NCBI GenBank assembly: GCA_014161675.1
Contig: GCA_014161675.1_4760.1
Length of the DNA stretch: 64,000 nt
DNA from: a phage
Reading direction: 5' to 3' (one strand)
Each line of letters begins with the position of its first letter. The first letter of the stretch is position 1. The notes under the pieces are model-generated. The model did no database searches, was not told the origin of the DNA, and worked only from the letters and a program-made list of their open reading frames with translations. This document shows, one piece after another, positions 4,421 to 60,048 of the stretch. The position numbers and the translations under genes were made by a program.

Positions 4421-7400
4421 TTAAAGCGCCTAGTGTAACTAGCTTGACAATAGAAAAATTGTCTGCTAATCAGGCGTATATCACATGGGATGACGTAGGC
4501 GAAAACTTCTTTTATTTTGTGGAGTTAGCCGAAACCAGAACACGAGACGGGGAGATCATCCCCGTCGATGAGTTAAGCTGGGTAAACCTGGGATATACTG
4601 CCGACCAAAACTGGTTTGAGGATAAAAACCTTTTTCCAGAATATTATTACAAGTTTCGTGTAGCAGTAGCCGCAGAAGGATTTGAACAAAGTAAATGGGT
4701 TGAAACAGAAGAGTTTCAGACATTTAAAACAAACGCATATAATTTTTCTATGATGCGAGAGTTCAACCTTGCAAACGAGTTTATAAAGGAAAAATTTACA
4801 TACGATAATCGAGAGTATGTCAAGTTTAATACTGACCTGATTCAAGCATCATTAATGAAGGAAGATTTTGTCTTTAGTCCTGAATATGCAAACATGACAA
4901 ATATCTCAAACTACATTGTAGTGGATGAGAACTTTCATGAAATACAGGATCACATAGAAAAAGTTTGTACTGATATAAACCGCACTATGTTAGCGGAAAT
5001 GAACGGTGTTTTGTACCTTTTCGAACGGTTCCAGCCGATCGTGAAAGTGTCAAATGATAAAGGCCAATCATGGAAAGCATACAAGGCTTTTAATGACCGT
5101 GTAGGCAATCCGGTTTCCCGTACATGCGTTTATCAGTCTAAAACCACTACTTACGTTTTAGGATATGACCGAATCTTTTACGGACGACAAGCGAGCGATA
5201 CTCGATGGAGCGCGGACGATGTTCGATTTAGTGATGATACGATCACTTTTGCAAAGGTCGGTGACGAAAACGATTTAGGCTTTGACGTTGAGGTCTTTGG
5301 TGTATTTTCCAGATTAACAGGTGATACCACAAAATACGCCGAAGCTATGGCGTGTAGTGATGACTATTTGTGGGTTGGTGCTAAAGATGTTATTCGCAGG
5401 ATTCGTCTTAAGAATACTCCTGTTGATACCGTACAGGGTTCGCCTACGTTTGGAGAAAAAATATTCGATCCTGATGTTATCCGAGTAACAGGAAATGATA
5501 AAGCTGTCATTCAGAAAATGGATGTGATCGACGGTAAATTGCTTGTATTTGTTACGGGTGAAGTTAAACAGCGTTATCAAGATCCAACTAAACCAGAAAA
5601 CGTTGTTCCGTCAGATGATGCGGGTGTATACTTAATAGGGAGTGATGGTCTGTCTTTTCAGAGAGTATTTGGCAACACTCCGCAGGAAAGGGAATATATT
5701 CAGCATGGGTTCAGTAATATGTCAACCAATGGTGATGAGGTGTTCATAAGCCATTATAATCATCACTTCGAAAGCATTTTACCTGATCCAGAAACTGCCG
5801 AGAAATATGAATTGGGCGAAGCTGTAAAATATTCTCAGGAGCCAACTTATCTAACTGATAAGAAAATACATCAAACTACTTTCAGAGCAAGTTATGATGA
5901 TTTGCGTATTTGGGAGTTAGGACCGCAAGCGTATTATAACGAGGCTGATTATACATGGATGCGTCGAAACGGTGTCCGTGTGTGGATCACAAATGATAAT
6001 CGCCCGTTGGTTGTTTATCCAGAGGTTATCTATACTCAAGAAGTTGATACGTCTGGCATTCTTGACCAAAATAGGGTCAACCGAGAAGTTTATGATAAAG
6101 GGACCGTGACCTGTTATCTTAACAATGTTAAATTTGAAGGATTCAAACAATATGCATCCGGTGTAATGTTCCATAAAAACACAGGAGAGATCATAGGATT
6201 CTATCAATTTAATTATCGTGTTCGTGATCAGGTTGGTGTATATTGGAAACCTACAAATGTAGCATTTGTTGCTGAATTGCAAAATCAGGTTCGAGAGGTT
6301 CCCTGGGTTCCGGTTCACTACGATCGAGAGCAAGATCCAGATTTGCGGCCTTTACTGAATAAGATGACCCCTGATAGCTTTTTACTTGAGAACGAAAATT
6401 TCAGAAAATTCTCTGAATATTATCTGCAATTCTTAAGCGATGGTTCAGGAACATATTATAATAAACTAAAAAATCTGATTAAAAACAAATATCCACGCGA
6501 GAAAGATGCATATGAGTATCTTTGGTCAGAGATGAACAAACGAAACATCTATGCAGATAAAAACAAGCGAGATGCGGTAGTAAGATTCTTTGAATCCCGC
6601 AAATCAGATTTTTATTCCACTAAGGGCGTGGAGGCTTCTTATAAGTTCTTGTTTAAGTTACTTTATAATGAAGATGTGGAAATTGAGGTTGAATCACAAG
6701 CCGGACTAGAGTATGATATTGTTGTTAGTTCAACGAACATTGACGAGGATATCGTAGGTCGCACGATTTATACTCCAACCGGACGGGCTAACGTGACGTA
6801 TCTTGAAAGGGAATATGAAGGTGGTCGCCTACGCTGGCGAGTAACCATTCATAACCTGATCGGGCGGTTCGAAGAAGGTCAAGTGATCAAATCAGAGAAA
6901 ACAGCGTTTGAAGGGATGATCCTTGTTGGTGTACGTGGTAAAGAGTTGTTGAGTAGTTCAATCGACTATATCAACCGCTCACGAAGCCAATACACCATGA
7001 AGATTAAAAGTGCATTGCCAGTTTCGCGCTATGCAAATGATGTAATGCGATTCGTTCATCCTGTCGGCTTTGGGTTTATCGGTGTTACCCTGCTTACAAT
7101 GTTCATTAACAGCGGGTTAAGCATGAAGCACACCGAGACTATAATTCAATCTCTGAAAAATTATAAGTTTGACAGCGGATTGCCTAGCGTGTATCCTGAT
7201 CGGGTGGCAGACCTTGACGTTGACGGAAACATTAAGAAAGACCCGCTTACCGGAAAAGCATTATATTTGACTTCACCTTTAATTGGTGAAGAATTTCCGG
7301 TTCCTCCTGAATATGATCAGGAGAACAGCGAATTGTTCCACGGACTTAAAGCAAGCGAACGAAGATTTGCAATGAGTCCACTGTTTGACCAGTCGGCGGT

Positions 7401-10021: not shown

Positions 10022-10047
10022 AAGCCGTCCTTGTGGGCGGCTTTTTT
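10022..10047 (+). terminator. Rho-independent terminator after MTase cassette
   Basis: GCCGTCC-ttgt-GGGCGGC hairpin (one G-U wobble as RNA) followed by TTTTTT. Confidence 0.5.
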
Positions 10048-10057
10048 GTATGTATTT

Positions 10058-31606: not shown

Positions 31607-32848
31607 ATGACTCATATTTTTACTGAACTGTTGCGGGAATCTACTTCCTCAGTAGCTAACCAGACAGCGCGACCGCAACTATTATCATTAACTCGCGCGG
31701 TAAACAACCTGATTTTCTCTGATCTGGTAGCAATCCAGCCAACGGATCAACCAGTATCTGCATTGTACGGCCTACGTTATCTTAATCGTGATGGTCAGAT
31801 GACTTTCCGAACTGCTGCGACCTACGGTGGCGCGGCTGGTGATCGCACAGAGATTGAAGAGTTTTCAAAAGAAAAATCTTATGACGAAGGCGCACTGTTC
31901 AAATCAGACGATGTTGTATACGAAGTTGTGACCGCTGGTACAGTCGGTGAAGATGCCGAAACTCCAGAAGCTGCAATCTTTAAAGGCGTAATGACAAACA
32001 AAATTCGTTTCTATAGCGATTGTGCATCGGTAGAATACTTTGAAGATAAAAACACCGAAATTTCGTCTACCTCTATGCAGTTTGACAAGTGGCAAGTTAA
32101 TGTAGGTTCTCGTAAACTGAAAACCTCGTTCACGACCGAATTGATGCAGGATCTTGAGGCAAGCCAAATCAACTCTGAAAACTCTGTAATTGATCTTCTG
32201 GCTACTGTTGCTTCCGAAGAGATCAACAAAGATATTATTCAGAAGTTGATCACTGTATCATCTCGCTATAAAATTAAAGGGATCACCCCTGATGGCGTAC
32301 TTTCTCTCGTTAGCGTTCAGGATGCACCAACACAAGCGCGTGAACTTTACCGCTATGCTTGCGAAATGAGCAATCAAATGTTGCGGACTTCCTCCTTTGC
32401 TGGTACATACGTTTTGGCGTCTTCTCGCGTGGTTGGCCTCCTGCAATCTACCGGATGGATGGAAGAAACCGACAATGCTCTAAGCGAAGGTCGTCTACGT
32501 TGCGGTCTGGAAGTGTACGCAGACACGACGACACCTTTCGATTATATGCTCGTTGGTTGTAAGCACATGATCGGTGATATGGAGAGTGTAGGTTCTCTGT
32601 TCTACTCCCCATATACAGAAGCCGACGGCGCTGGCGCGTATAAGAGCGTAATTGACCCTAATAGCTTCCAGCATCATGTAGCTATTATGAATCGTTATTC
32701 ACTATCTGTCAACCCATACACATCAAAAGTTGATCAGGAAGAACACCAGGTCATCAAGGGTGACGATTGGGGTAAAATGGCTGGACGTTCAGAAATGTCC
32801 TACATTTTAGGAATCGAACTGCCACCGCTTGAGATTGACAACGCTTAA
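31607..32848 (+). CDS. 24: gp24 head vertex protein
   Basis: N-terminus 'MTHIFTELLRESTSS...' aligns with T4 gp24; ORF-track start 31541 is TTG, ATG 31607 preferred. Confidence 0.85.
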   Translation: MTHIFTELLRESTSSVANQTARPQLLSLTRAVNNLIFSDLVAIQPTDQPVSALYGLRYLNRDGQMTFRTAATYGGAAGDRTEIEEFSKEKSYDEGALFKSDDVVYEVVTAGTVGEDAETPEAAIFKGVMTNKIRFYSDCASVEYFEDKNTEISSTSMQFDKWQVNVGSRKLKTSFTTELMQDLEASQINSENSVIDLLATVASEEINKDIIQKLITVSSRYKIKGITPDGVLSLVSVQDAPTQARELYRYACEMSNQMLRTSSFAGTYVLASSRVVGLLQSTGWMEETDNALSEGRLRCGLEVYADTTTPFDYMLVGCKHMIGDMESVGSLFYSPYTEADGAGAYKSVIDPNSFQHHVAIMNRYSLSVNPYTSKVDQEEHQVIKGDDWGKMAGRSEMSYILGIELPPLEIDNA

Positions 32849-33436
32849 CTAAATATCTAACCAAGACAAGTCAGATCCGCCCAAGATTTTTTCGACGGCG
32901 GATCTATTTTCTTGATGATATAAGTTAAAACATGGTATCCCATGTCTACGGGCAACATAAACAGCAATTCGAGTTCCTCCCGAAACGATTCCATTAACTT
33001 CTTTCGCCCAAAATAACACACAATCTACAGGATCATCAAGTGTCTCACCTAAAACTTGAGCAACATTTCTAGAAAACAGATTTTGCATGTATAACGGTAT
33101 AGAACGAGGATTATCATAAACTTGTTCTAATTCATCCATCGCCAGATTTTTTTGTTCTAAGGTTTGCCATGCAATCACATCATGACCGTTATGCTTGTGG
33201 TCATAAAACTTCCAATTTGGAATGAAAATTTTTCTATAATCTGGATCGTAATATTTCATGAAAGCATTGTCCATACCGTAAGCCCCTCCAGAATGCGCTA
33301 CAACGCGATTTTCTGACAATACCCTCCCAATGGTACTAGCCATTATCAAAATGTCGCTAGGCGCTTTTCTAGAGCCTATTAAAGCACATCTACGAAGTGG
33401 TTTTACTCCAAATAGATCTTGTAACTGGTCAAACAT
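32849..33436 (-). CDS. Rossmann-like protein, possible SLOG/DprA(Smf)-like fold
   Basis: 'CALIGSRKAP...VVAHSGGAYGMDNAF' and 'SGGTRIAVYVARRHGIP' resemble DprA/SLOG motifs; GGAGGA RBS. Confidence 0.35.
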   Translation of the reverse strand: MFDQLQDLFGVKPLRRCALIGSRKAPSDILIMASTIGRVLSENRVVAHSGGAYGMDNAFMKYYDPDYRKIFIPNWKFYDHKHNGHDVIAWQTLEQKNLAMDELEQVYDNPRSIPLYMQNLFSRNVAQVLGETLDDPVDCVLFWAKEVNGIVSGGTRIAVYVARRHGIPCFNLYHQENRSAVEKILGGSDLSWLDI

Positions 33437-33588
33437 AATATTTCCTCCATAGAAAGCAATATCATACTACAAGTTAATAACAAATACAAGTATCCGCGTA
33501 GCGGAAGCGAGCACAGCGAGCAATAAAACACTTCCAGTAATTGATTAATAAATGTTCGAAACAAATTTTTATTATTCTATAAGATAAG

Positions 33589-33614
33589 TCTTCGTTTTGA
33601 TCATAATTTAATCA
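33589..33614. repeat. Direct repeat copy 1 (26 bp)
   Basis: tcttcgttttgatcataatttaatca; identical copy at 33738-33763. Confidence 0.7.
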
Positions 33615-33737
33615 TACATGTAAAAACTACACAAAAGGATATCGCTTCGCGAACTCCTACGGAGTATAACATTTGTGTTACAATATGTAGTGATTAATAA
33701 TTAACCAAAGATACATTTTCTATGTTCTAAAGATCTT

Positions 33738-33763
33738 TCTTCGTTTTGATCATAATTTAATCA
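33738..33763. repeat. Direct repeat copy 2 (26 bp)
   Basis: Identical to 33589-33614; flanking 'aagat' and 'acatgtaaa' also shared. Confidence 0.7.
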
Positions 33764-33818
33764 AACAGTATTAATATTGTGCACATGTAAACTAAAATTA
33801 TGTCAATAATAGATACAA

Positions 33819-33843
33819 AAAAGCCGCCCCGAAGGACGGCTAA
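33819..33843 (-). terminator. Rho-independent terminator (minus strand)
   Basis: On the minus strand GCCGTCC-ttcg-GGGCGGC plus T-run; on the plus strand the stem has a C-A mismatch. Confidence 0.45.
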
Positions 33844-33849
33844 TGTTAA

Positions 33850-34287
33850 TTATTTGTTGATAACGATCTGATTTCGGCGAATGGTAACATTACTCTTAGA
33901 GATGATCAGATCATCCGGCACTACGTTAGTTTTGTATGGTTGGAAGCGAACAAGCATCTGATTGCGTTTAGACCCTTCCTTAATCTTGATTTCCATCTGG
34001 ATATTGTTGCCTACGTGAGCAACCGCAATTTCACCTTTATTCTCATAGACCCACTTGCTGGTAACGTCTCCAGCAAAAGCCTTAATAACTTGCAATGCTT
34101 CGTCGTATGCGGTAGAGCTGTGAACTTTCAGAAGGCCAGCCGTAGCAAGACGGGAGCAGGTGATCGCCGGAGATTGCCAAACATCAACATTAATTTGCTC
34201 AATCAGAGTAACACCGCCCTGATCAACTGCTTTGAATGCTTCGAACATTGCCTTTTTCATTGCTACGTGGTTTTTACGGAATTTCAT
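33850..34287 (-). CDS. hypothetical protein
   Basis: 145-aa ORF with GAGGTGA RBS; no motif recognised. Confidence 0.5.
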   Translation of the reverse strand: MKFRKNHVAMKKAMFEAFKAVDQGGVTLIEQINVDVWQSPAITCSRLATAGLLKVHSSTAYDEALQVIKAFAGDVTSKWVYENKGEIAVAHVGNNIQMEIKIKEGSKRNQMLVRFQPYKTNVVPDDLIISKSNVTIRRNQIVINK

Positions 34288-34333
34288 AATTATTCACCTC
34301 TATTGATTAGTTATTCAGAATATTAATTACAAA

Positions 34334-34609
34334 TCAGGACATTGCCCGTTTGAATGCGTCCATTATAACAGTGTTATTTGGCATGTCAACACGTTTTTGA
34401 ACTTTATTTTTAAATTTTTTGTTGATGTGGTGTTTACGATAAACAACCTTTTCACGATTGGCGTAAGACTCTCGTGCATCTTTTACCATCAACCATGCCT
34501 TAGCCGCATCTTGTCCGCTGATCCCGCCAATCTTCTTAGCAATATCAACAAAATTAAGACCGTGGTCTTCGCGTAGCATGTAAACCATTAACGCTGTTTT
34601 CTTGTCCAT
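34334..34609 (-). CDS. hypothetical protein, possible helix-turn-helix
   Basis: 91 aa; 'LNFVDIAKKIGGISGQDAAKAW' is HTH-like; basic C-terminus. Confidence 0.4.
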   Translation of the reverse strand: MDKKTALMVYMLREDHGLNFVDIAKKIGGISGQDAAKAWLMVKDARESYANREKVVYRKHHINKKFKNKVQKRVDMPNNTVIMDAFKRAMS

Positions 34610-34806
34610 TACTTCGCCTCATTGACGATTAACAGGATAGTGATCAGTACCGGAAACTGGATCATGACAGTACCAAAAAACCGGATAAACGCATTTTCTG
34701 ACTTCCACACATGACATGCGACTAGCTGATAGACCATTGTTGCAACCAAAGCCAGAAAATACATCTCGATTGGTGCTTCTTTGATCAATCGTACAATCTC
34801 ATTCAT
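34609..34806 (-). CDS. small membrane protein
   Basis: 65 aa with two hydrophobic stretches; GAGGTGA RBS. Confidence 0.45.
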   Translation of the reverse strand: MNEIVRLIKEAPIEMYFLALVATMVYQLVACHVWKSENAFIRFFGTVMIQFPVLITILLIVNEAK

Positions 34807-34960
34807 ACTTCACCTCATACATTCATAAACACAACAACGAATAGGACAGTAACAGTTATTAAAGCCATTTTCAACCCCATATTCATAATATTTTCCTCAT
34901 AAGGTAACGCCCTGTTGATGTGTGCCATTATAAGCCACTAAATCACACTGTCAAGCACTA

Positions 34961-34990
34961 AAAACAAAAAAGCCACCCCGAAGGATGGCT
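34961..34990 (-). terminator. Rho-independent terminator after hoc (minus strand)
   Basis: Minus strand GCCATCC-ttcg-GGGTGGC plus U-run. Confidence 0.45.
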
Positions 34991-35001
34991 GATAGATTTC
35001 A

Positions 35002-36216
35002 TTAAGCAGGATGCGTTTCACGAATGCGTAGAACTCGATCTAACGTCTCTCGGTCCAGTTTATGTAACTCTTTGGACTGATACATGAAACCATTGCGAGA
35101 TTCCATGCAAGTGCAATCACTATATTTTTCTTCCGCTGCCGCGATTGTCTCCAGATCTTTGGCGTACTTGCTGGTTGAATAAACTTCTCGGTTACGCCAC
35201 TCTAACCCAGCCTCATTGAATTTAACAATCTCGTCAAATACCCACCATCCAATGTAGATAAATGAAGTTTTGCGCCACGGGATCGGGTGTACGTAACGAA
35301 ACATTTTAACAACTTCCATTGAACATTTTCTACTTGTACTTGTTGCAACTTCTACTGTTTCATCTTCGATCTGTTGATATAGTTTAGCAACACACCAGAA
35401 TTTGGCTGTGTCATCGTAAGTAGCACTCTCTTTGAACAGATGACCGTCTGGAGTGATAGAAAATCCTTCCAGTGCTTCGCCAACCTCACTACCGATCAGA
35501 GTCGGTGACGGTTGCCCTTCGCGCTGCAAATACCAGTTATGTTTGATCGTCAATTCAGGCATACCGCTAGAATCGCCTACAATGTTCTCTGACACAACAT
35601 AATTAAGTAAGATCTCATTACCTAGTGCCACGGTCTTTGATTCCACCACATCCTGATCTACGTTCATTGTTGCCAGCATGATTTTAGTCGATGCGCTAGC
35701 GGCTGAATCTTCCGACTCACCCCACACTTTTACAGTATACACGCCGTTTTTATCTGCTGTAAATTCTTGGATCGTAATATCCTTTTTTGTGTCTATAACG
35801 TCATCGCCCTTACTCCAACTATAATGTAGTTCATAGTTGTCTGATGGAGTCTTCCCACCCGAAAATTTTACTGTTGCATGTAATTCTACGTTTGTTTGTG
35901 ATGATACGTAGAAATGCTGCGGTTCGGTGATATTTACGATTAATTCAGCTTCTTCCATGAGGAAAACTTCAGATTCTACTGATGTCATCGTATCGGTATC
36001 CTGTACCGTTACTTTATAGCTACCCGCATTTTCACTTGTTGCGTCTGCTACAGTTAGCGTAGCTGTGCTATTTTCATGCGGTTGGTCGTCTTTTGTCCAT
36101 GTATATGTCAAATTGCTGGGTAATGGTTCGTCACCCGCTACAGTCGCCGTTAAGGTGAAACCATCTCCAGCAAGAAAACATCTTTTGTCAGATTTAATTG
36201 ATACTGTGAAAGTCAT
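35002..36216 (-). CDS. hoc: Hoc highly immunogenic outer capsid protein
   Basis: 'MTFTVSI' start; Ig-like repeats ('LTYTWTKDDQ', 'YSWSKGDD'); C-terminal 'YVHPIPWRKTSFIYIGWWVFDEI' and 'ESRNGF' match T4 Hoc. Confidence 0.8.
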   Translation of the reverse strand: MTFTVSIKSDKRCFLAGDGFTLTATVAGDEPLPSNLTYTWTKDDQPHENSTATLTVADATSENAGSYKVTVQDTDTMTSVESEVFLMEEAELIVNITEPQHFYVSSQTNVELHATVKFSGGKTPSDNYELHYSWSKGDDVIDTKKDITIQEFTADKNGVYTVKVWGESEDSAASASTKIMLATMNVDQDVVESKTVALGNEILLNYVVSENIVGDSSGMPELTIKHNWYLQREGQPSPTLIGSEVGEALEGFSITPDGHLFKESATYDDTAKFWCVAKLYQQIEDETVEVATSTSRKCSMEVVKMFRYVHPIPWRKTSFIYIGWWVFDEIVKFNEAGLEWRNREVYSTSKYAKDLETIAAAEEKYSDCTCMESRNGFMYQSKELHKLDRETLDRVLRIRETHPA

Positions 36217-57616: not shown

Positions 57617-58093
57617 TTATTTTTCTTGATGCTCGCGATCGTACTTTTCGAAATAAAATTCTACTGGCTGGTCGTGGATTGACAGCAAGCCAAAGCGTTT
57701 AGCCGCTCGCAATCCCATATTGCGCTGAATGTACTTCTGGAAGTTCTCGCGTATACACTTACGCCAGGATTCTAAGCCCATGCAGCTTTTATAAAGATTG
57801 CATTGCACACACGCCGGATTCATGTTATCAAGTATATCATGCTCCGGTTTATGCATTCCTACAACCTTATACTTCCACGATCCATCATCATTACGGGCAA
57901 TTCGTCCATTTTCATCATAGACTACCTTTGAGCGTCGCAATACTGGTTTGATGTGGTCTGCGTGCCAGCGATCCCCTAGTTCCTCGCCACAATAGGCACA
58001 ACGTCCACCATATTTCATTTTCAGGATCTGGCGTTGATCTTTCTTTGACAATTTTTTAGGTTTAGGGGCTTTCGCCCCTTCATTATCACACAT
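57617..58093 (-). CDS. HNH endonuclease (putative free-standing homing endonuclease)
   Basis: 'CAYCGEEL...HADHIKP...N...CVQCN' HNH/zinc motif; start overlaps ligase stop. Confidence 0.65.
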   Translation of the reverse strand: MCDNEGAKAPKPKKLSKKDQRQILKMKYGGRCAYCGEELGDRWHADHIKPVLRRSKVVYDENGRIARNDDGSWKYKVVGMHKPEHDILDNMNPACVQCNLYKSCMGLESWRKCIRENFQKYIQRNMGLRAAKRFGLLSIHDQPVEFYFEKYDREHQEK

Positions 58094-59582
58094 CGAATAC
58101 CTCTTTTACTGTATTTGCAGTGGTCTTGTCGTAGCGAATACGTTTGATGATTGGGAGAAATAAAGAGAACTCCGGTTCATCTTCTTTACGTGATTTGCTG
58201 CGGATATACCCGTTGCATGTCATCTCAATGACTTTGCCAACCAGGTTATGACGGTCAGCCCATAACATTTCTCGGTCGAGTTCATTTCGACGAACGAACG
58301 GAATTACACGTTCAGTACCATCATCACCTTTTTCGGTTGTAGTGTCGGTTAATCCCGATCCGGTGTTAGTCATCATTCGTCCGCACGCACTACGGACAGT
58401 AAAACCGCCTACCTTATTGGGGTCTTTACTATGCGGATATACGTCAACAATTTCCGCGTCGAAGTCAATCACTTCTTTAAATTTAACCTGATCTTTACTA
58501 CGGCGATCTTCAAATACACCATGTAAATTTTTAAGGATAATACCTTCTAAGCCCATGTTGACATAACGATGATATACTTCGCGAGCTTCATCGATATTGT
58601 TAACTACAGTATTTTCGATTATCTGAACACGAGGATCGTTAAGTTCTTCAACAATCTGTTTTAGTTCTTCGAATCGATCTTTATATTGCTTCGTTGCTTT
58701 CTCGTTTCCATAATACACATCACGGTCGATAACATCCCAGACAGTGTAAACAATACATTGGGCTTCTTCTTTTGGAATAGTTCCTTTAAGTGATTTGTTG
58801 AGGATACCATTTCCGGTCTGACGATCTGCAACAACGGATTCTTTCACTGCTTCCGCTACTGGCGTTAATGGCATTTCCTCTTCTTCAAATATCCATGACA
58901 GAGTACCATCATAAACGCTCTCAACGAAGTTCTGCGCTGGTGTTTGCGAAAGGGTAGGCATATATACCAATTCGCCATCTAGAACAATTCCACGGCCTCG
59001 TAGACGCTCTAAAACCGCAAACAAATCATCAAGCCCTTGATAGGTATTACCTGAGCGGGTATAGATTGCTAATGTTTCCCCGTCAATATCAGCCATACCA
59101 CGAGCGCCATCGCTTTTAAGTTGTGCATACGCCGGATACTTGATATTAGCAATAGTCTTATCAGAACATGACGATGCAAGGTGGCACGGCTGCTGGGGGA
59201 TCAGTTTCTTCCATACCTTGTTTGCAGTGGTAGCTGAACAGCCGCATTCCAGATCACGATTCAGGACCATCATTGCAACTTTAGCATCATCCTCTGACAA
59301 GCAAGTCAGAGTATCGGTAACTAGCTGTAATGCTGCATTACCAGTTACTTGACGCGTGGCAAGTTTATTTTTAAAGACCTGTAATGCACCGGATAAAGAT
59401 AATACAGACGAATAGCGAGATGGTTTATCGTATTTCTTTACGCCAAACGTAACCTGTTTGCAATATGCCAGATAAAAGCATTCTTTCAGCGTTTCATTGC
59501 TCGCGGATTCTTTCAGAATCTTTTCTTTCAGCGATGTTTTGTCTGTTGCTGCAAGCTGATTAATGATATTAAGAATTGACAT
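58086..59582 (-). CDS. 30: ATP-dependent DNA ligase gp30
   Basis: 'AQLKSDGAR' (KxDG adenylation motif), 'LDGELVY', 'EGIILKN', 'VKFKEVIDFD' collinear with T4 ligase; ATG 59582 preferred over GTG 59588. Confidence 0.85.
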   Translation of the reverse strand: MSILNIINQLAATDKTSLKEKILKESASNETLKECFYLAYCKQVTFGVKKYDKPSRYSSVLSLSGALQVFKNKLATRQVTGNAALQLVTDTLTCLSEDDAKVAMMVLNRDLECGCSATTANKVWKKLIPQQPCHLASSCSDKTIANIKYPAYAQLKSDGARGMADIDGETLAIYTRSGNTYQGLDDLFAVLERLRGRGIVLDGELVYMPTLSQTPAQNFVESVYDGTLSWIFEEEEMPLTPVAEAVKESVVADRQTGNGILNKSLKGTIPKEEAQCIVYTVWDVIDRDVYYGNEKATKQYKDRFEELKQIVEELNDPRVQIIENTVVNNIDEAREVYHRYVNMGLEGIILKNLHGVFEDRRSKDQVKFKEVIDFDAEIVDVYPHSKDPNKVGGFTVRSACGRMMTNTGSGLTDTTTEKGDDGTERVIPFVRRNELDREMLWADRHNLVGKVIEMTCNGYIRSKSRKEDEPEFSLFLPIIKRIRYDKTTANTVKEVFDV

Positions 59583-60048
59583 TTTCACCTCGTTTTGTTA
59601 AACGTTCACGAATATCATTGAGGATACTACAAAATTCCGATTCAGTCAATATAGTCTTTAACGGATCAGTTCCACCTATGCTATGACGTAATTTCTTATT
59701 TCCGGTAGAGAGTAATGCTTTACAAAATTCTGGGTTATTCCGTGCCATCGTAACAAATGCCAGATGTACCAGTCTGTAATAATGCTCACTCATTCGATGA
59801 ATCGGGCGACCCTGAAAATATAACATGTGATTCTCAATCTTTTCAGTTCTTCCGGTTCTTTTTGCTTTGCCACCGTGCATCAAAAAGATTTCTCTTTGTC
59901 TCTGAGGGTTCTTAAATCTTAGCCCCTGTAAAAATCCTTCTGTGCTGTTAATATCGCAACCAAATAGACGGAATGGTCTTTTATTGAAATTACTCAATTC
60001 ACCCGATGGATAAGGTCCACCCGCATAGATATCAATTTCAGAAGTCAT
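59569..60048 (-). CDS. NADAR (YbiA/DUF1768)-like protein
   Basis: 'IYAGGPYPSGELSNFNKRPF...INSTEGFLQGLRF' parallels YbiA 'INFYS..DYGDFSNF...TSEHYFQAQKF'. Confidence 0.55.
   Translation of the reverse strand: MTSEIDIYAGGPYPSGELSNFNKRPFRLFGCDINSTEGFLQGLRFKNPQRQREIFLMHGGKAKRTGRTEKIENHMLYFQGRPIHRMSEHYYRLVHLAFVTMARNNPEFCKALLSTGNKKLRHSIGGTDPLKTILTESEFCSILNDIRERLTKRGENVNS

Follow-up and report, generated by a model that had tools for sequence, protein, structure and literature searches.

Binding of ssDNA by the DprA protein of H. pylori is defined by two motifs, 'G-S/T/A-R' and 'F/L/Y-x-x-R-N/D' (Wang et al. 2014; PMC3950713), and the substitutions R52E and R143E lower its affinity 170-315-fold (PMC3950713). 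A counter-defence or nucleotide-signalling role for viral SLOG domains is a published prediction (PMC9503650). A preprint (bioRxiv 10.1101/2025.06.06.658234) lists the phage SLOG protein ORF83, which is different from the family treated here, as an anti-Avs3 factor. AMP binding is predicted for ORF83, and the ligase ORF55 is also listed as an anti-Avs3 factor. The present family itself has been treated in comparative-genomics papers, and over 1,300 phage genomes already carry annotations for it, under labels that vary between records from 'hypothetical' to 'DprA-like recombination mediator', 'YspA SLOG' and even 'RNA ligase'; some Krischvirus records already name the orthologue 'DprA-like DNA recombination-mediator protein'. 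SLOG or DprA proteins go unmentioned in the NARP3 paper and in a Migulavirinae immune-evasion paper. As for the genomic context, the T4 annotation reads 24, rnlB, 24.2, 24.3, hoc, inh, just as a sequence-only reading of the locus described below had placed rnlB, 24.2 and 24.3 in this interval. In RB49-type phages, variable ORFs are flanked by PeSL (promoter-early stem-loop) elements, which consist of a stem-loop and an early promoter (PMC2839356).

The DNA analysed here, a window of 64,000 nucleotides, comes from a T4-like coliphage (Krischvirus, RB49 type). The ORF coordinates agree with the earlier observation of four minus-strand genes between gp24 and hoc (Table 1), and since all of them have PHROG or Pfam profile matches they are genuine genes and not chance ORFs. 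The gp24-hoc locus is 97-99% identical across about 57 Krischvirus genomes, and the SLOG gene converges on gp24, the two stop codons being 0 nt apart. The 65-aa protein is hydrophobic (GRAVY 0.96), with probably two membrane helices, and the stop of its gene overlaps the start of the 91-aa gene. The 91-aa protein is basic (pI 10) and shares the DUF2774 domain and 38% identity (BLASTP E 6e-12) with T4 gp24.3; it is possibly a small HTH protein, because T4 24.3 weakly matches GerE/HTH_38. Annotation of this gene as 127 or 91 aa among Krischviruses was discarded as a difference, one base change opening an upstream in-frame start while the gene content stays the same. The 145-aa protein, also basic (pI 9.7) and at best weakly winged-helix-like in fold, is confined to a Krischvirus-like clade, in which its gene invariably lies between the DUF2774 and SLOG genes.

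Table 1. Genes and putative expression signals at the gp24-hoc locus (positions in the window)
Feature	Position	Strand	Basis or remark
gp24 (capsid-vertex gene)	~31607-32848	+	left flank
SLOG gene	32849..33436	-	195 aa; ORF list, phrog_768 profile match
AT-rich non-coding spacer	33437..33849	-	413 nt; position held by rnlB in relatives
GGAGG, SLOG gene	33448-33444	-	7 nt before ATG, read from sequence
Sigma70-like promoter TTGTAT-17-TATGAT, SLOG gene	33489-33461	-	by-eye reading, outside scan output
Hairpin TCCGCTACGCGGA, SLOG gene	33505-33493	-	hairpin list; L008, L086 and L087 keep it, with compensatory changes
Terminator-like stem-loop AGCCGTCCTTCGGGGCGGCT and T-run	33816..33841	-	after 145-aa gene; followed by TTGACA
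145-aa gene	33850..34287	-	ORF list, phrog_15652 E 7e-102
91-aa gene	34334..34609	-	Pfam DUF2774, 101 bits (cut-off 29.2)
Perfect sigma70 consensus promoter TTGACA-16-TATAAT with TG	34362..34389	-	within 3' end of 91-aa gene, towards 145-aa gene
65-aa gene	34609..34806	-	phrog_16558 E 9e-44
Perfect promoter TTGACA-16-TATAAT	34954-34927	-	downstream of post-hoc stem-loop
Terminator-like stem-loop	34990-34971	-	after hoc; followed by promoter
hoc	35002-36216	-	right flank

The sequence-only reading had called the 195-aa protein SLOG/DprA-like, an assignment borne out by the match of its predicted structure to solved SLOG members, by a four-motif pocket and by a full-length match to phrog_768 (E 1.4e-60, 205 bits, residues 15-187 on profile positions 4-181 of 191). 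The motifs on which it had drawn (ALIGSRKAPSD, HSGGAYGMDNAF and VSGGTRIAVYVA) are all present in the translation. The predicted model is a three-layer Rossmannoid with a parallel sheet, as in the solved members, with DprA as the closest fold, and it holds the SLOG-type glycine-rich ligand loops and the GG(x)T loop before a helix. Size and motifs are those of PHROG 768, with no structural difference, the name of this PHROG being itself a predicted function. Compared with bacterial DprA/Smf (PF02481; 3maj, 4ljk/4ljr, 3uqz), the match stays under both the Pfam threshold (22.3 bits, gathering cut-off 29.6, residues 15-60 only) and that of TIGRFAM (TIGR00732, 14.4 bits against 191), and the sequence alignment covers only the N-terminal third of the protein; the profile match to LOG has an E-value of 0.14. 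The bacterial proteins have SAM and C-terminal winged-helix domains, neither of which was found by domain profiles or in the predicted model of the single-domain 195-aa protein, whereas the latter has an additional insertion of about 40 residues (73-114), modelled with lower confidence, and is carried by a lytic phage that uses UvsX/UvsY. The isoelectric point, mildly acidic here (6.3) against a family median of 8.5, proved uninformative as a discriminator. DprA proper also homodimerises, has a RecA-interaction surface and binds ssDNA. On the predicted model, the 195-aa protein is a Rossmann (SLOG) domain of the DprA clade in minimal, stand-alone form, and its gene, conserved in Krischvirus, is an ordinary accessory gene encoding an ordinary member of a known family.

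Both this fold and the conservation of the pocket motifs are established by the analysis. The four motifs, G21-S22-R23, S49-G-G-A-x-G-x-D56, L120-x-x-R123-N124-x-x-Q127 and G153-G154-T155, all lie where a strand ends or a helix begins in the predicted model, and among 134 family sequences G21, G50, G54, G153, G154 and T155 show no or almost no variation. Both of the H. pylori ssDNA-binding motifs recur here, the first as G21 (134/134), S22 (119/134) and R23 (132/134), and the second as L120-F-S-R123-N124 within helix 115-129 (L120 in 109, R123 in 134 and N124 in 129 of the 134 sequences). The SLOG fold, the R-N dyad and the glycine-rich-loop Thr are common to the LOG phosphoribohydrolases and to ORF83. 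However, where LOG has the catalytic Glu of PGGxGTxxE, no conserved acid occurs in the nine residues after G153-G154-T155 in the 134 sequences; since position T+2 is T, I, Q or V in 134/134 and A158 is nearly invariant (128/134), equivalents of the LOG glutamate and of D114 of ORF83 are missing. ORF83 was also rejected as a family member, its R-to-T spacing of 23 residues, taken from the published residue numbers, falling outside the 27-39 of the family. The conserved residues match the nucleic-acid pocket of DprA rather than a LOG-type hydrolase site.

Our comparison of the interval with those of other phages led to a different view of its history from the accessory swap first proposed, in which the SLOG gene would stand instead of rnlB. 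This description is misleading, since relatives carry the SLOG gene directly downstream of rnlB at the same locus. The genes gp24, 24.3 (DUF2774), hoc, inh and uvsW follow in T4 in the same order and orientation as here; rnlB and 24.2 are both missing here, and the SLOG, 145-aa and 65-aa genes are without counterpart in the T4 interval. As 24.3 is retained in the form of its 91-aa DUF2774 homologue, part of the T4 gene set is kept. Rnl2 was found neither in the 64-kb window nor in the complete Krischvirus genome OZ035795, and searches for an rnlB remnant in the 413-nt spacer or the 145-aa gene, by tblastn (22 Rnl2 queries, E up to 10) and by blastn against rnlB DNA, gave only chance-level matches.

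In many other T4-like phages (Moonvirus, Jiaodavirus, Karamvirus and Slopekvirus) the rnlB-SLOG pair occupies the gp24 locus, and the stop codon of the first gene often overlaps the start codon of the second. The pair is present in annotated genomes of Moonvirus, Jiaodavirus and an Erwinia phage, and in Slopekvirus both genes are also found together at a different locus. Among 80 IMG/VR loci, rnlB lies directly upstream of the SLOG gene on the same strand in 23, and in 13 of these the genes overlap by 1-22 nt. Such phages (for example Citrobacter phage Merlin, Klebsiella Jiaodavirus/Slopekvirus, Erwinia phage COW86c) share with ours the order inh - hoc - DUF2774 - ... - SLOG - gp24, with gp24 convergent, and their SLOG proteins are orthologous to the 195-aa protein (38-46% identity), but Rnl2 stands immediately upstream of SLOG where we find the clade-specific 145-aa gene, a terminator and the 413-nt spacer. 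In the tree, the Krischvirus SLOG proteins are sister to a clade whose members are all Rnl2-linked. The arrangement described here is old, because it is common to relatives with SLOG proteins only 49-57% identical. Synteny and the loss of Rnl2 are established, and the comparison indicates that T4 has kept rnlB only and the Krischvirus lineage the SLOG gene only; as relatives have SLOG directly downstream of rnlB at this place, T4 and this phage represent two different reductions of the pair. Linkage to Rnl2 is limited to one T4-like clade and thus reflects few independent events. It is this pairing, and not the SLOG family already known, that constitutes a new synteny lead.

The transcription signals of the locus are established at the level of consensus matches. 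Those upstream of the SLOG gene (33444..33505) resemble a PeSL element in combining a stem-loop with an early promoter, and a sigma70-type promoter of its own appears to drive early expression of the gene. The stem-loop at 33816-33841 recurs at 34965-34990 (86% identity over 35 nt); a perfect promoter comes after the second copy, and after the first there is only TTGACA. Their layout is PeSL-like, and the stem-loop and promoter at 34927..34990 may form a cassette boundary of this kind that opens an early transcription unit. Within the 413-nt spacer, an element of 27-38 nt occurs twice (33581-33618 and 33730-33767), alongside blocks conserved in divergent relatives. An RNA gene in this spacer was considered and rejected, the search yielding no tRNA and only Rfam matches far below the gathering score, on terminators.

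The family was detected by tblastn in 1,341 of about 50,700 phage records, and an exhaustive profile search recovered 4,315 clusters at 50% identity. Other members of the family adjoin PrimPol, AAA_24 (Sak4-like) and DUF669 SSB genes, or PhoH; on sphingomonad genome contigs the SLOG locus also has SSB and DUF1173, and further members reside on plasmids of sphingomonads and Variovorax, with 12 of 24 typed as conjugative. Others are fused to RecJ, NADAR and Macro. NADAR has been shown experimentally to be a DNA ADP-ribosyl-glycohydrolase (PMC11825919), and Iyer et al. read the fusions with NADAR, Macro and DUF4326 as evidence for processing of soluble ADP-ribose derivatives. In the phage under study, the DNA ligase gene and a NADAR gene of the gp30.3/AdfN type overlap.

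For the ligand, the partner relationship and the repair or counter-defence role of the 195-aa protein, we infer the following. By likeness to the equivalent pocket of DprA, the four-motif pocket would most likely accept a nucleotide or base of a single-stranded nucleic acid, and the protein could be a helper with weak catalytic activity or none, whose task would be to recognise or protect nucleic acid that is single-stranded or damaged and to pass it on to enzymes of repair or recombination. Its ancestral partner in T4-like phages would be RNA ligase 2, the gene of which overlaps the SLOG gene; with rnlB lost and SLOG kept in the Krischvirus lineage, the protein would act here alone or with other partners. 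We put this forward tentatively, at somewhat less than even chances. We read the neighbours and fusions (Rnl2, PrimPol-Sak4-SSB, RecJ, NADAR, Macro) as better suited to a helper of repair or counter-defence that binds single-stranded nucleic acid or nucleotides than to an enzyme degrading signals. Weighing against the helper proposal are the DprA score below the Pfam cut-off, the alignment of only the N-terminal third, the missing SAM and winged-helix domains, the pI of 6.3, the absence of Rnl2 here and its linkage in only one T4-like clade, as well as the soluble-ADP-ribose reading of Iyer et al. and the AMP binding predicted for ORF83.

The published view of viral SLOG domains, like the sequence-only reading, suggests instead small-molecule counter-defence, the pocket binding or cleaving AMP, ADP-ribose derivatives or cADPR-type signals and so blunting NAD/ADPr or nucleotide-signalling defences. 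We consider this somewhat less likely than the helper, given the missing acid after GGT, the coincidence of the conserved residues with DNA-contacting motifs of DprA, the predominance of nucleic-acid enzymes among the neighbours, the action of NADAR on DNA-linked ADP-ribose and the position of ORF83, by its motif spacing, outside the family. The ThsA-type sensor of Thoeris is a SIR2/TM-fused SLOG paired with a TIR gene, an architecture that the 195-aa protein does not have.

A more elaborate reading joins SLOG and a nick-sealing ligase in a previously unrecognised two-part phage module for repair or counter-defence. The listing of both ORF55 and ORF83 among the anti-Avs3 factors and the overlap of the NADAR and DNA ligase genes here would fit it. 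In single-stranded nucleic acid, SLOG would detect a nucleotide that is flipped out, broken or ADP-ribosylated and bring in a catalytic partner, which in most T4-like phages would be Rnl2, through translational coupling, and in other cases a fused NADAR, Macro or RecJ domain, to undo damage by host nuclease or ADP-ribosyltransferase defences; we regard this as rather improbable. Still less probable is a strict DprA-type recombination mediator loading UvsX or RecA onto SSB-coated ssDNA. The closest fold, the matching motifs, the Sak4-like AAA_24 and SSB neighbours of some members and the suggestion that jumbo-phage DprA/Smf is an additional ssDNA binder (Iyer et al. 2021) favour such a mediator, but T4-like phages already have UvsY as their mediator (T4 annotation), and the linkage seen here is with an RNA ligase gene instead of genes for recombination. 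Finally, the protein is very unlikely to be an orphan mimic of ShosA/PsyrA, the antitoxins of ShosTA/PsyrTA, that neutralises ShosT/PsyrT-type phosphoribosyltransferase toxins in infection, since the PADLOC matches (E 4e-5 and 3.5e-4) span only ~45 residues, in the Rossmann motif common to the N-termini, and do not surpass those to DprA, the stability and function of ShosA depend on its SAM domain, dimer interface and RecA contact while the 195-aa protein is without SAM domain, alpha14 helix or adjacent PRTase toxin gene, and 1,341 phage records are far more than expected for one TA target.

The helper proposal, with Rnl2 as ancestral partner, concerns a family that is very common in phages, occurs also on plasmids and has Rnl2 as a coupled partner in many T4-like phages. 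The translational coupling of Rnl2 and SLOG may offer a handle on the physiological role of T4 RNA ligase 2, and their pairing a handle on what phage SLOG domains bind.

The four minus-strand ORFs between gp24 and hoc lie exactly where the sequence-only reading had placed them, and chance ORFs are excluded by a strong match of each predicted protein to a phage family. Gene order around the locus (gp23 and gp24 on the plus strand, these four genes, hoc and inh on the minus strand, uvsW on the plus strand) agrees with the T4 backbone, whose corresponding interval holds rnlB, 24.2 and 24.3, as that reading had also said in accordance with the T4 annotation. Its view that this T4 set had been replaced held only in part: none of the four proteins resembles Rnl2 or gp24.2, but the 91-aa protein is a homologue of T4 gp24.3 that it had missed (38% identity, E 6e-12; both DUF2774). 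The DUF2774 gene encodes a small, basic protein, with weak HTH matches in its T4 homologue, and the 65-aa protein, at a GRAVY of 0.96, is hydrophobic. About 57 genomes of Krischvirus, the RB49-type 'pseudo-T-even' coliphages, share the 4.8 kb surrounding the locus at 97-99% identity. Two divergent Krischvirus-like contigs each carry two large Ig-domain hoc-like genes of ~850 aa and ~410-450 aa (L086, 1642-5619; L087, 1818-5638), and the window has one hoc gene of 404 aa.

Features of the SLOG locus and of the other window positions discussed (promoters and stem-loops are consensus matches on sequence)
Feature	Position	Strand	Basis or remark
Stem-loop with T-run, distant copy	10023-10048	+	AGCCNNCCTTCGGGGNGGCTTTTTTG
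SLOG protein, 195 aa	32849-33436	-	phrog_768, E 1e-60
Non-coding AT-rich spacer, 413 nt	33437-33849		upstream of SLOG gene
SLOG gene's own hairpin	33505-33493	-	sequence read
Spacer element, first copy	33589-33615	-	TTGATTAAATTATGATCAAAACGAAGA
Spacer element, second copy	33738-33764	-	TTGATTAAATTATGATCAAAACGAAGA
Near-copy of post-hoc stem-loop, then TTGACA	33816-33841	-	after 145-aa gene; stem-loop at 33841-33822
145-aa protein	33850-34287	-	phrog_15652, E 7e-102
91-aa protein	34334-34609	-	DUF2774, 101 bits
Second perfect promoter, within 91-aa gene end	34389-34362	-	consensus match; then 145-aa gene
65-aa protein	34609-34806	-	phrog_16558, E 9e-44
Tiny hydrophobic ORF (MNMGLKMALITVTVLFVVVFMNV)	~34814-34885	-	between post-hoc promoter and 65-aa gene
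Perfect TTGACA-16-TATAAT promoter	34954-34927	-	consensus match, after post-hoc stem-loop
Stem-loop with T-run after hoc	34965-34990	-	stem-loop at 34990-34971
ATP-dependent DNA ligase	58086-59588	-	
159-aa gp30.3-family protein	59569-60048	-	Pfam Phage_30_3, E 6.5e-38; NADAR-related

The proposal of a SLOG/DprA-like fold was right, and DprA is the closest SLOG branch. An AlphaFold2 model built with seven homologues reached pLDDT 84.8 and pTM 0.84, with lower confidence confined to an insertion around residues 73-114, and Foldseek ranked DprA first. A single-sequence scan with Pfam DprA gave 22.3 bits, below the threshold of 29.6; a profile of 134 family members matched DprA chains at E 9e-6, LOG at 0.14 and the Moco carrier protein at 0.46, and 94 of the 134 members individually matched the DprA model. 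The protein, a single bare domain, scores below the thresholds curated for the DprA family. The gene belongs to an already known, widely annotated family, phrog_768, for which an exhaustive HMM search recovered 4,315 cluster representatives (E up to 1e-3); most of these proteins have a single domain and ~180 aa.

The motifs quoted in the sequence-only reading are present in the protein, and an alignment of 134 of these 4,315 representatives revealed four motifs of invariant or nearly invariant positions: I/V-G21-S22-R23-x-x-P26; S49-G50-G-A52-x-G54-x-D56; L120-x-x-R123-N124-x-x-Q127-x-x-G130; and G153-G154-T155-x-x-A158, plus N171. All four map in the model to strand C-termini or helix N-termini, the customary ligand face of Rossmann folds. 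No counterpart of the catalytic glutamate of LOG (PGGxGTxxE) was found in the alignment, where G-G-T is followed by R/A, T/I/Q, A, V, x, L and A, and never by an acid. In the H. pylori DprA-ssDNA complex, 'G-S/T/A-R' and 'F/L/Y-x-x-R-N/D' build a pocket that takes one inserted ssDNA base, and the changes R52E and R143E reduce affinity 170-315-fold (Wang et al., PMC3950713). Both motifs are present in the 195-aa protein.

Comparison with related phages did not sustain the idea that the SLOG gene had been swapped in for rnlB. No Rnl2 was found with 22 diverse queries in the 64-kb window or in one complete Krischvirus genome, and no rnlB remnant appeared at its expected place, occupied by a terminator, the spacer and the 145-aa gene. 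Many relatives carry both genes as a pair, and the swap gives way to an orphaned partner of rnlB. A same-strand Rnl2 homologue lies upstream of the SLOG gene in 23 of 80 related IMG/VR loci, with a stop/start overlap of 1-22 nt in 13 of these 23 (for instance Rnl2 5000-6001 and SLOG 5980-6543 in locus L024). Where SLOG abuts gp24 in T4-like loci, Rnl2 is upstream in all save three Krischvirus-type loci; the annotated genomes of Klebsiella Jiaodavirus LAL003 and of Erwinia phage COW86c have the genes in the order inh - hoc - DUF2774 - x - x - RNA ligase 2 - SLOG - gp24. With the Citrobacter phage Merlin protein as tblastn query (358 records), the SLOG ORF overlapped an 'RNA ligase' annotation in 23 of 24 sampled rows (identity at least 56%). 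The pair has relocated jointly away from gp24 in Slopekvirus, where a nicotinamide phosphoribosyltransferase (NAMPT) gene lies ~1.3 kb downstream of it (Klebsiella Slopekvirus locus L004, 2446-7334; also L010-L017), and an HNH endonuclease gene separates its members in some Slopekvirus-type genomes.

In a neighbour-joining tree, read for topology only, the Krischvirus SLOGs are sister to a clade in which every member is Rnl2-linked. The Krischvirus-type arrangement is old in its lineage, since metagenomic relatives whose SLOG is 49-57% identical already have the order DUF2774 - 142/151-aa protein - spacer - SLOG - gp24. T4 has rnlB only, 29 bp from gene 24, whereas Krischvirus has SLOG and no Rnl2, and the two therefore look like complementary reductions of one rnlB-SLOG pair. 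In the Krischvirus phage Skers (MW748999.1, 1348-1935) the SLOG orthologue is annotated 'putative RNA ligase'; no ligase similarity was found for it, and the label probably stems from the neighbouring or overlapping rnlB of other phages. Within the literature library searched, no paper named both 'RNA ligase 2' and DprA. The Rnl2-SLOG coupling, along with the motif-level match to the nucleic-acid pocket of DprA, makes up the modest value added here.

The locus appears to be divided into cassettes. The 65-aa gene stop overlaps the 91-aa gene start, both genes lying downstream of the post-hoc promoter; in some records the tiny ORF is a longer 37-aa version starting within the -10 element. The GC-rich stem-loop occurs three times in the window, and two copies bound cassettes of the locus. 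These repeats, like the stem-loop and promoter layout of the locus, are consistent with the PeSLs, stem-loops with an early promoter that Arbiol et al. described in RB49 and phi1 and suggested as a means of shuffling ORF cassettes; the authors also noted variability close to hoc (PMC2839356). Upstream of the SLOG gene, a promoter-like TTGTAT-17-TATGAT site and a putative GGAGG ribosome-binding site are kept in relatives down to 49% protein identity, the hairpin with compensatory changes. Spacer blocks, including a small hairpin (TTCGCGAAGCGA), are kept at 49-86% SLOG identity; Rfam and tRNA searches of the spacer gave no match, and no further copy of its paired element was found in the 64 kb. 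Candidate roles for the spacer are those of an operator pair, a long leader and a small RNA.

Beyond T4-like phages, members lie directly upstream of genes for a PrimPol/DUF3987 primase-helicase, an AAA_24 (Sak4-type) protein and a DUF669 SSB, and in rV5-like phages right after PhoH, inside ribonucleotide-reductase and CCA-enzyme clusters. Bacterial members are mainly sphingomonad, with DUF1173 and SSB genes adjoining (genome contigs L094-L138), and a plasmid search placed members on 24 plasmids, for the most part from Novosphingobium and Variovorax, with 12 of the 24 typed as conjugative; this setting suggests a role during single-strand DNA entry. SLOG is fused to a macro domain on plasmids of Sphingosinicella (H119) and Erythrobacter (H122). 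The best 150 matches include fusions to NADAR, DUF4326 and RecJ. Among those to NADAR, three are ~325 aa long and two are polyvalent proteins of ~1,480 aa that contain two more SLOG domains.

Elsewhere in the window, the gp30.3-family gene, whose family includes the anti-DarTG1 factor AdfN, overlaps the DNA ligase gene start by 20 nt. In this respect 'NADAR-then-ligase' resembles the overlapping 'Rnl2-then-SLOG' genes of relatives, and NADAR-SLOG fusions occur elsewhere.

We tentatively prefer to see the protein as a DprA-type domain whose pocket holds on to a nucleotide within single-stranded nucleic acid, as a helper to repair or recombination enzymes. The main rival, in line with the original suggestion of a nucleotide-signalling or counter-defence context, is that a soluble nucleotide signal is bound or hydrolysed; it seems to us somewhat less likely. 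Iyer et al. reported the same fusions; their prediction for viral SLOG domains, which they stress are uncharacterised, is that these sense or process soluble ADP-ribose derivatives (PMC9503650); for the NADAR and Macro fusions, a nucleic-acid reading is at least as natural as a small-molecule one, and the same group has proposed jumbo-phage DprA/Smf as an additional ssDNA binder (PMC7824862). A partial precedent for the soluble signal is ORF83, a phage protein annotated Smf/DprA and named anti-Avs3 factor, with AMP binding predicted via R89, N90, T112 and D114 (bioRxiv 10.1101/2025.06.06.658234). By the published residue numbers alone, its R-to-T spacing is 23 as against 27-39 in the SLOG family and it has an acid which the family lacks, so ORF83 is a cousin and not a member. 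Counter-defence is plausible, although the conserved residues do not favour it as the best-supported reading. Mimicry of the ShosA/PsyrA antitoxin is a weak possibility, as PADLOC matches are confined to the common N-terminal motif and the SAM domain on which ShosA depends is absent; a recombination mediator in the strict sense is a fourth option.

Under the preferred helper role, the pocket would hold one nucleotide of single-stranded nucleic acid while the protein assists repair or recombination enzymes. Its ancestral enzyme partner would be Rnl2, and in the phage of the window it would operate without it.
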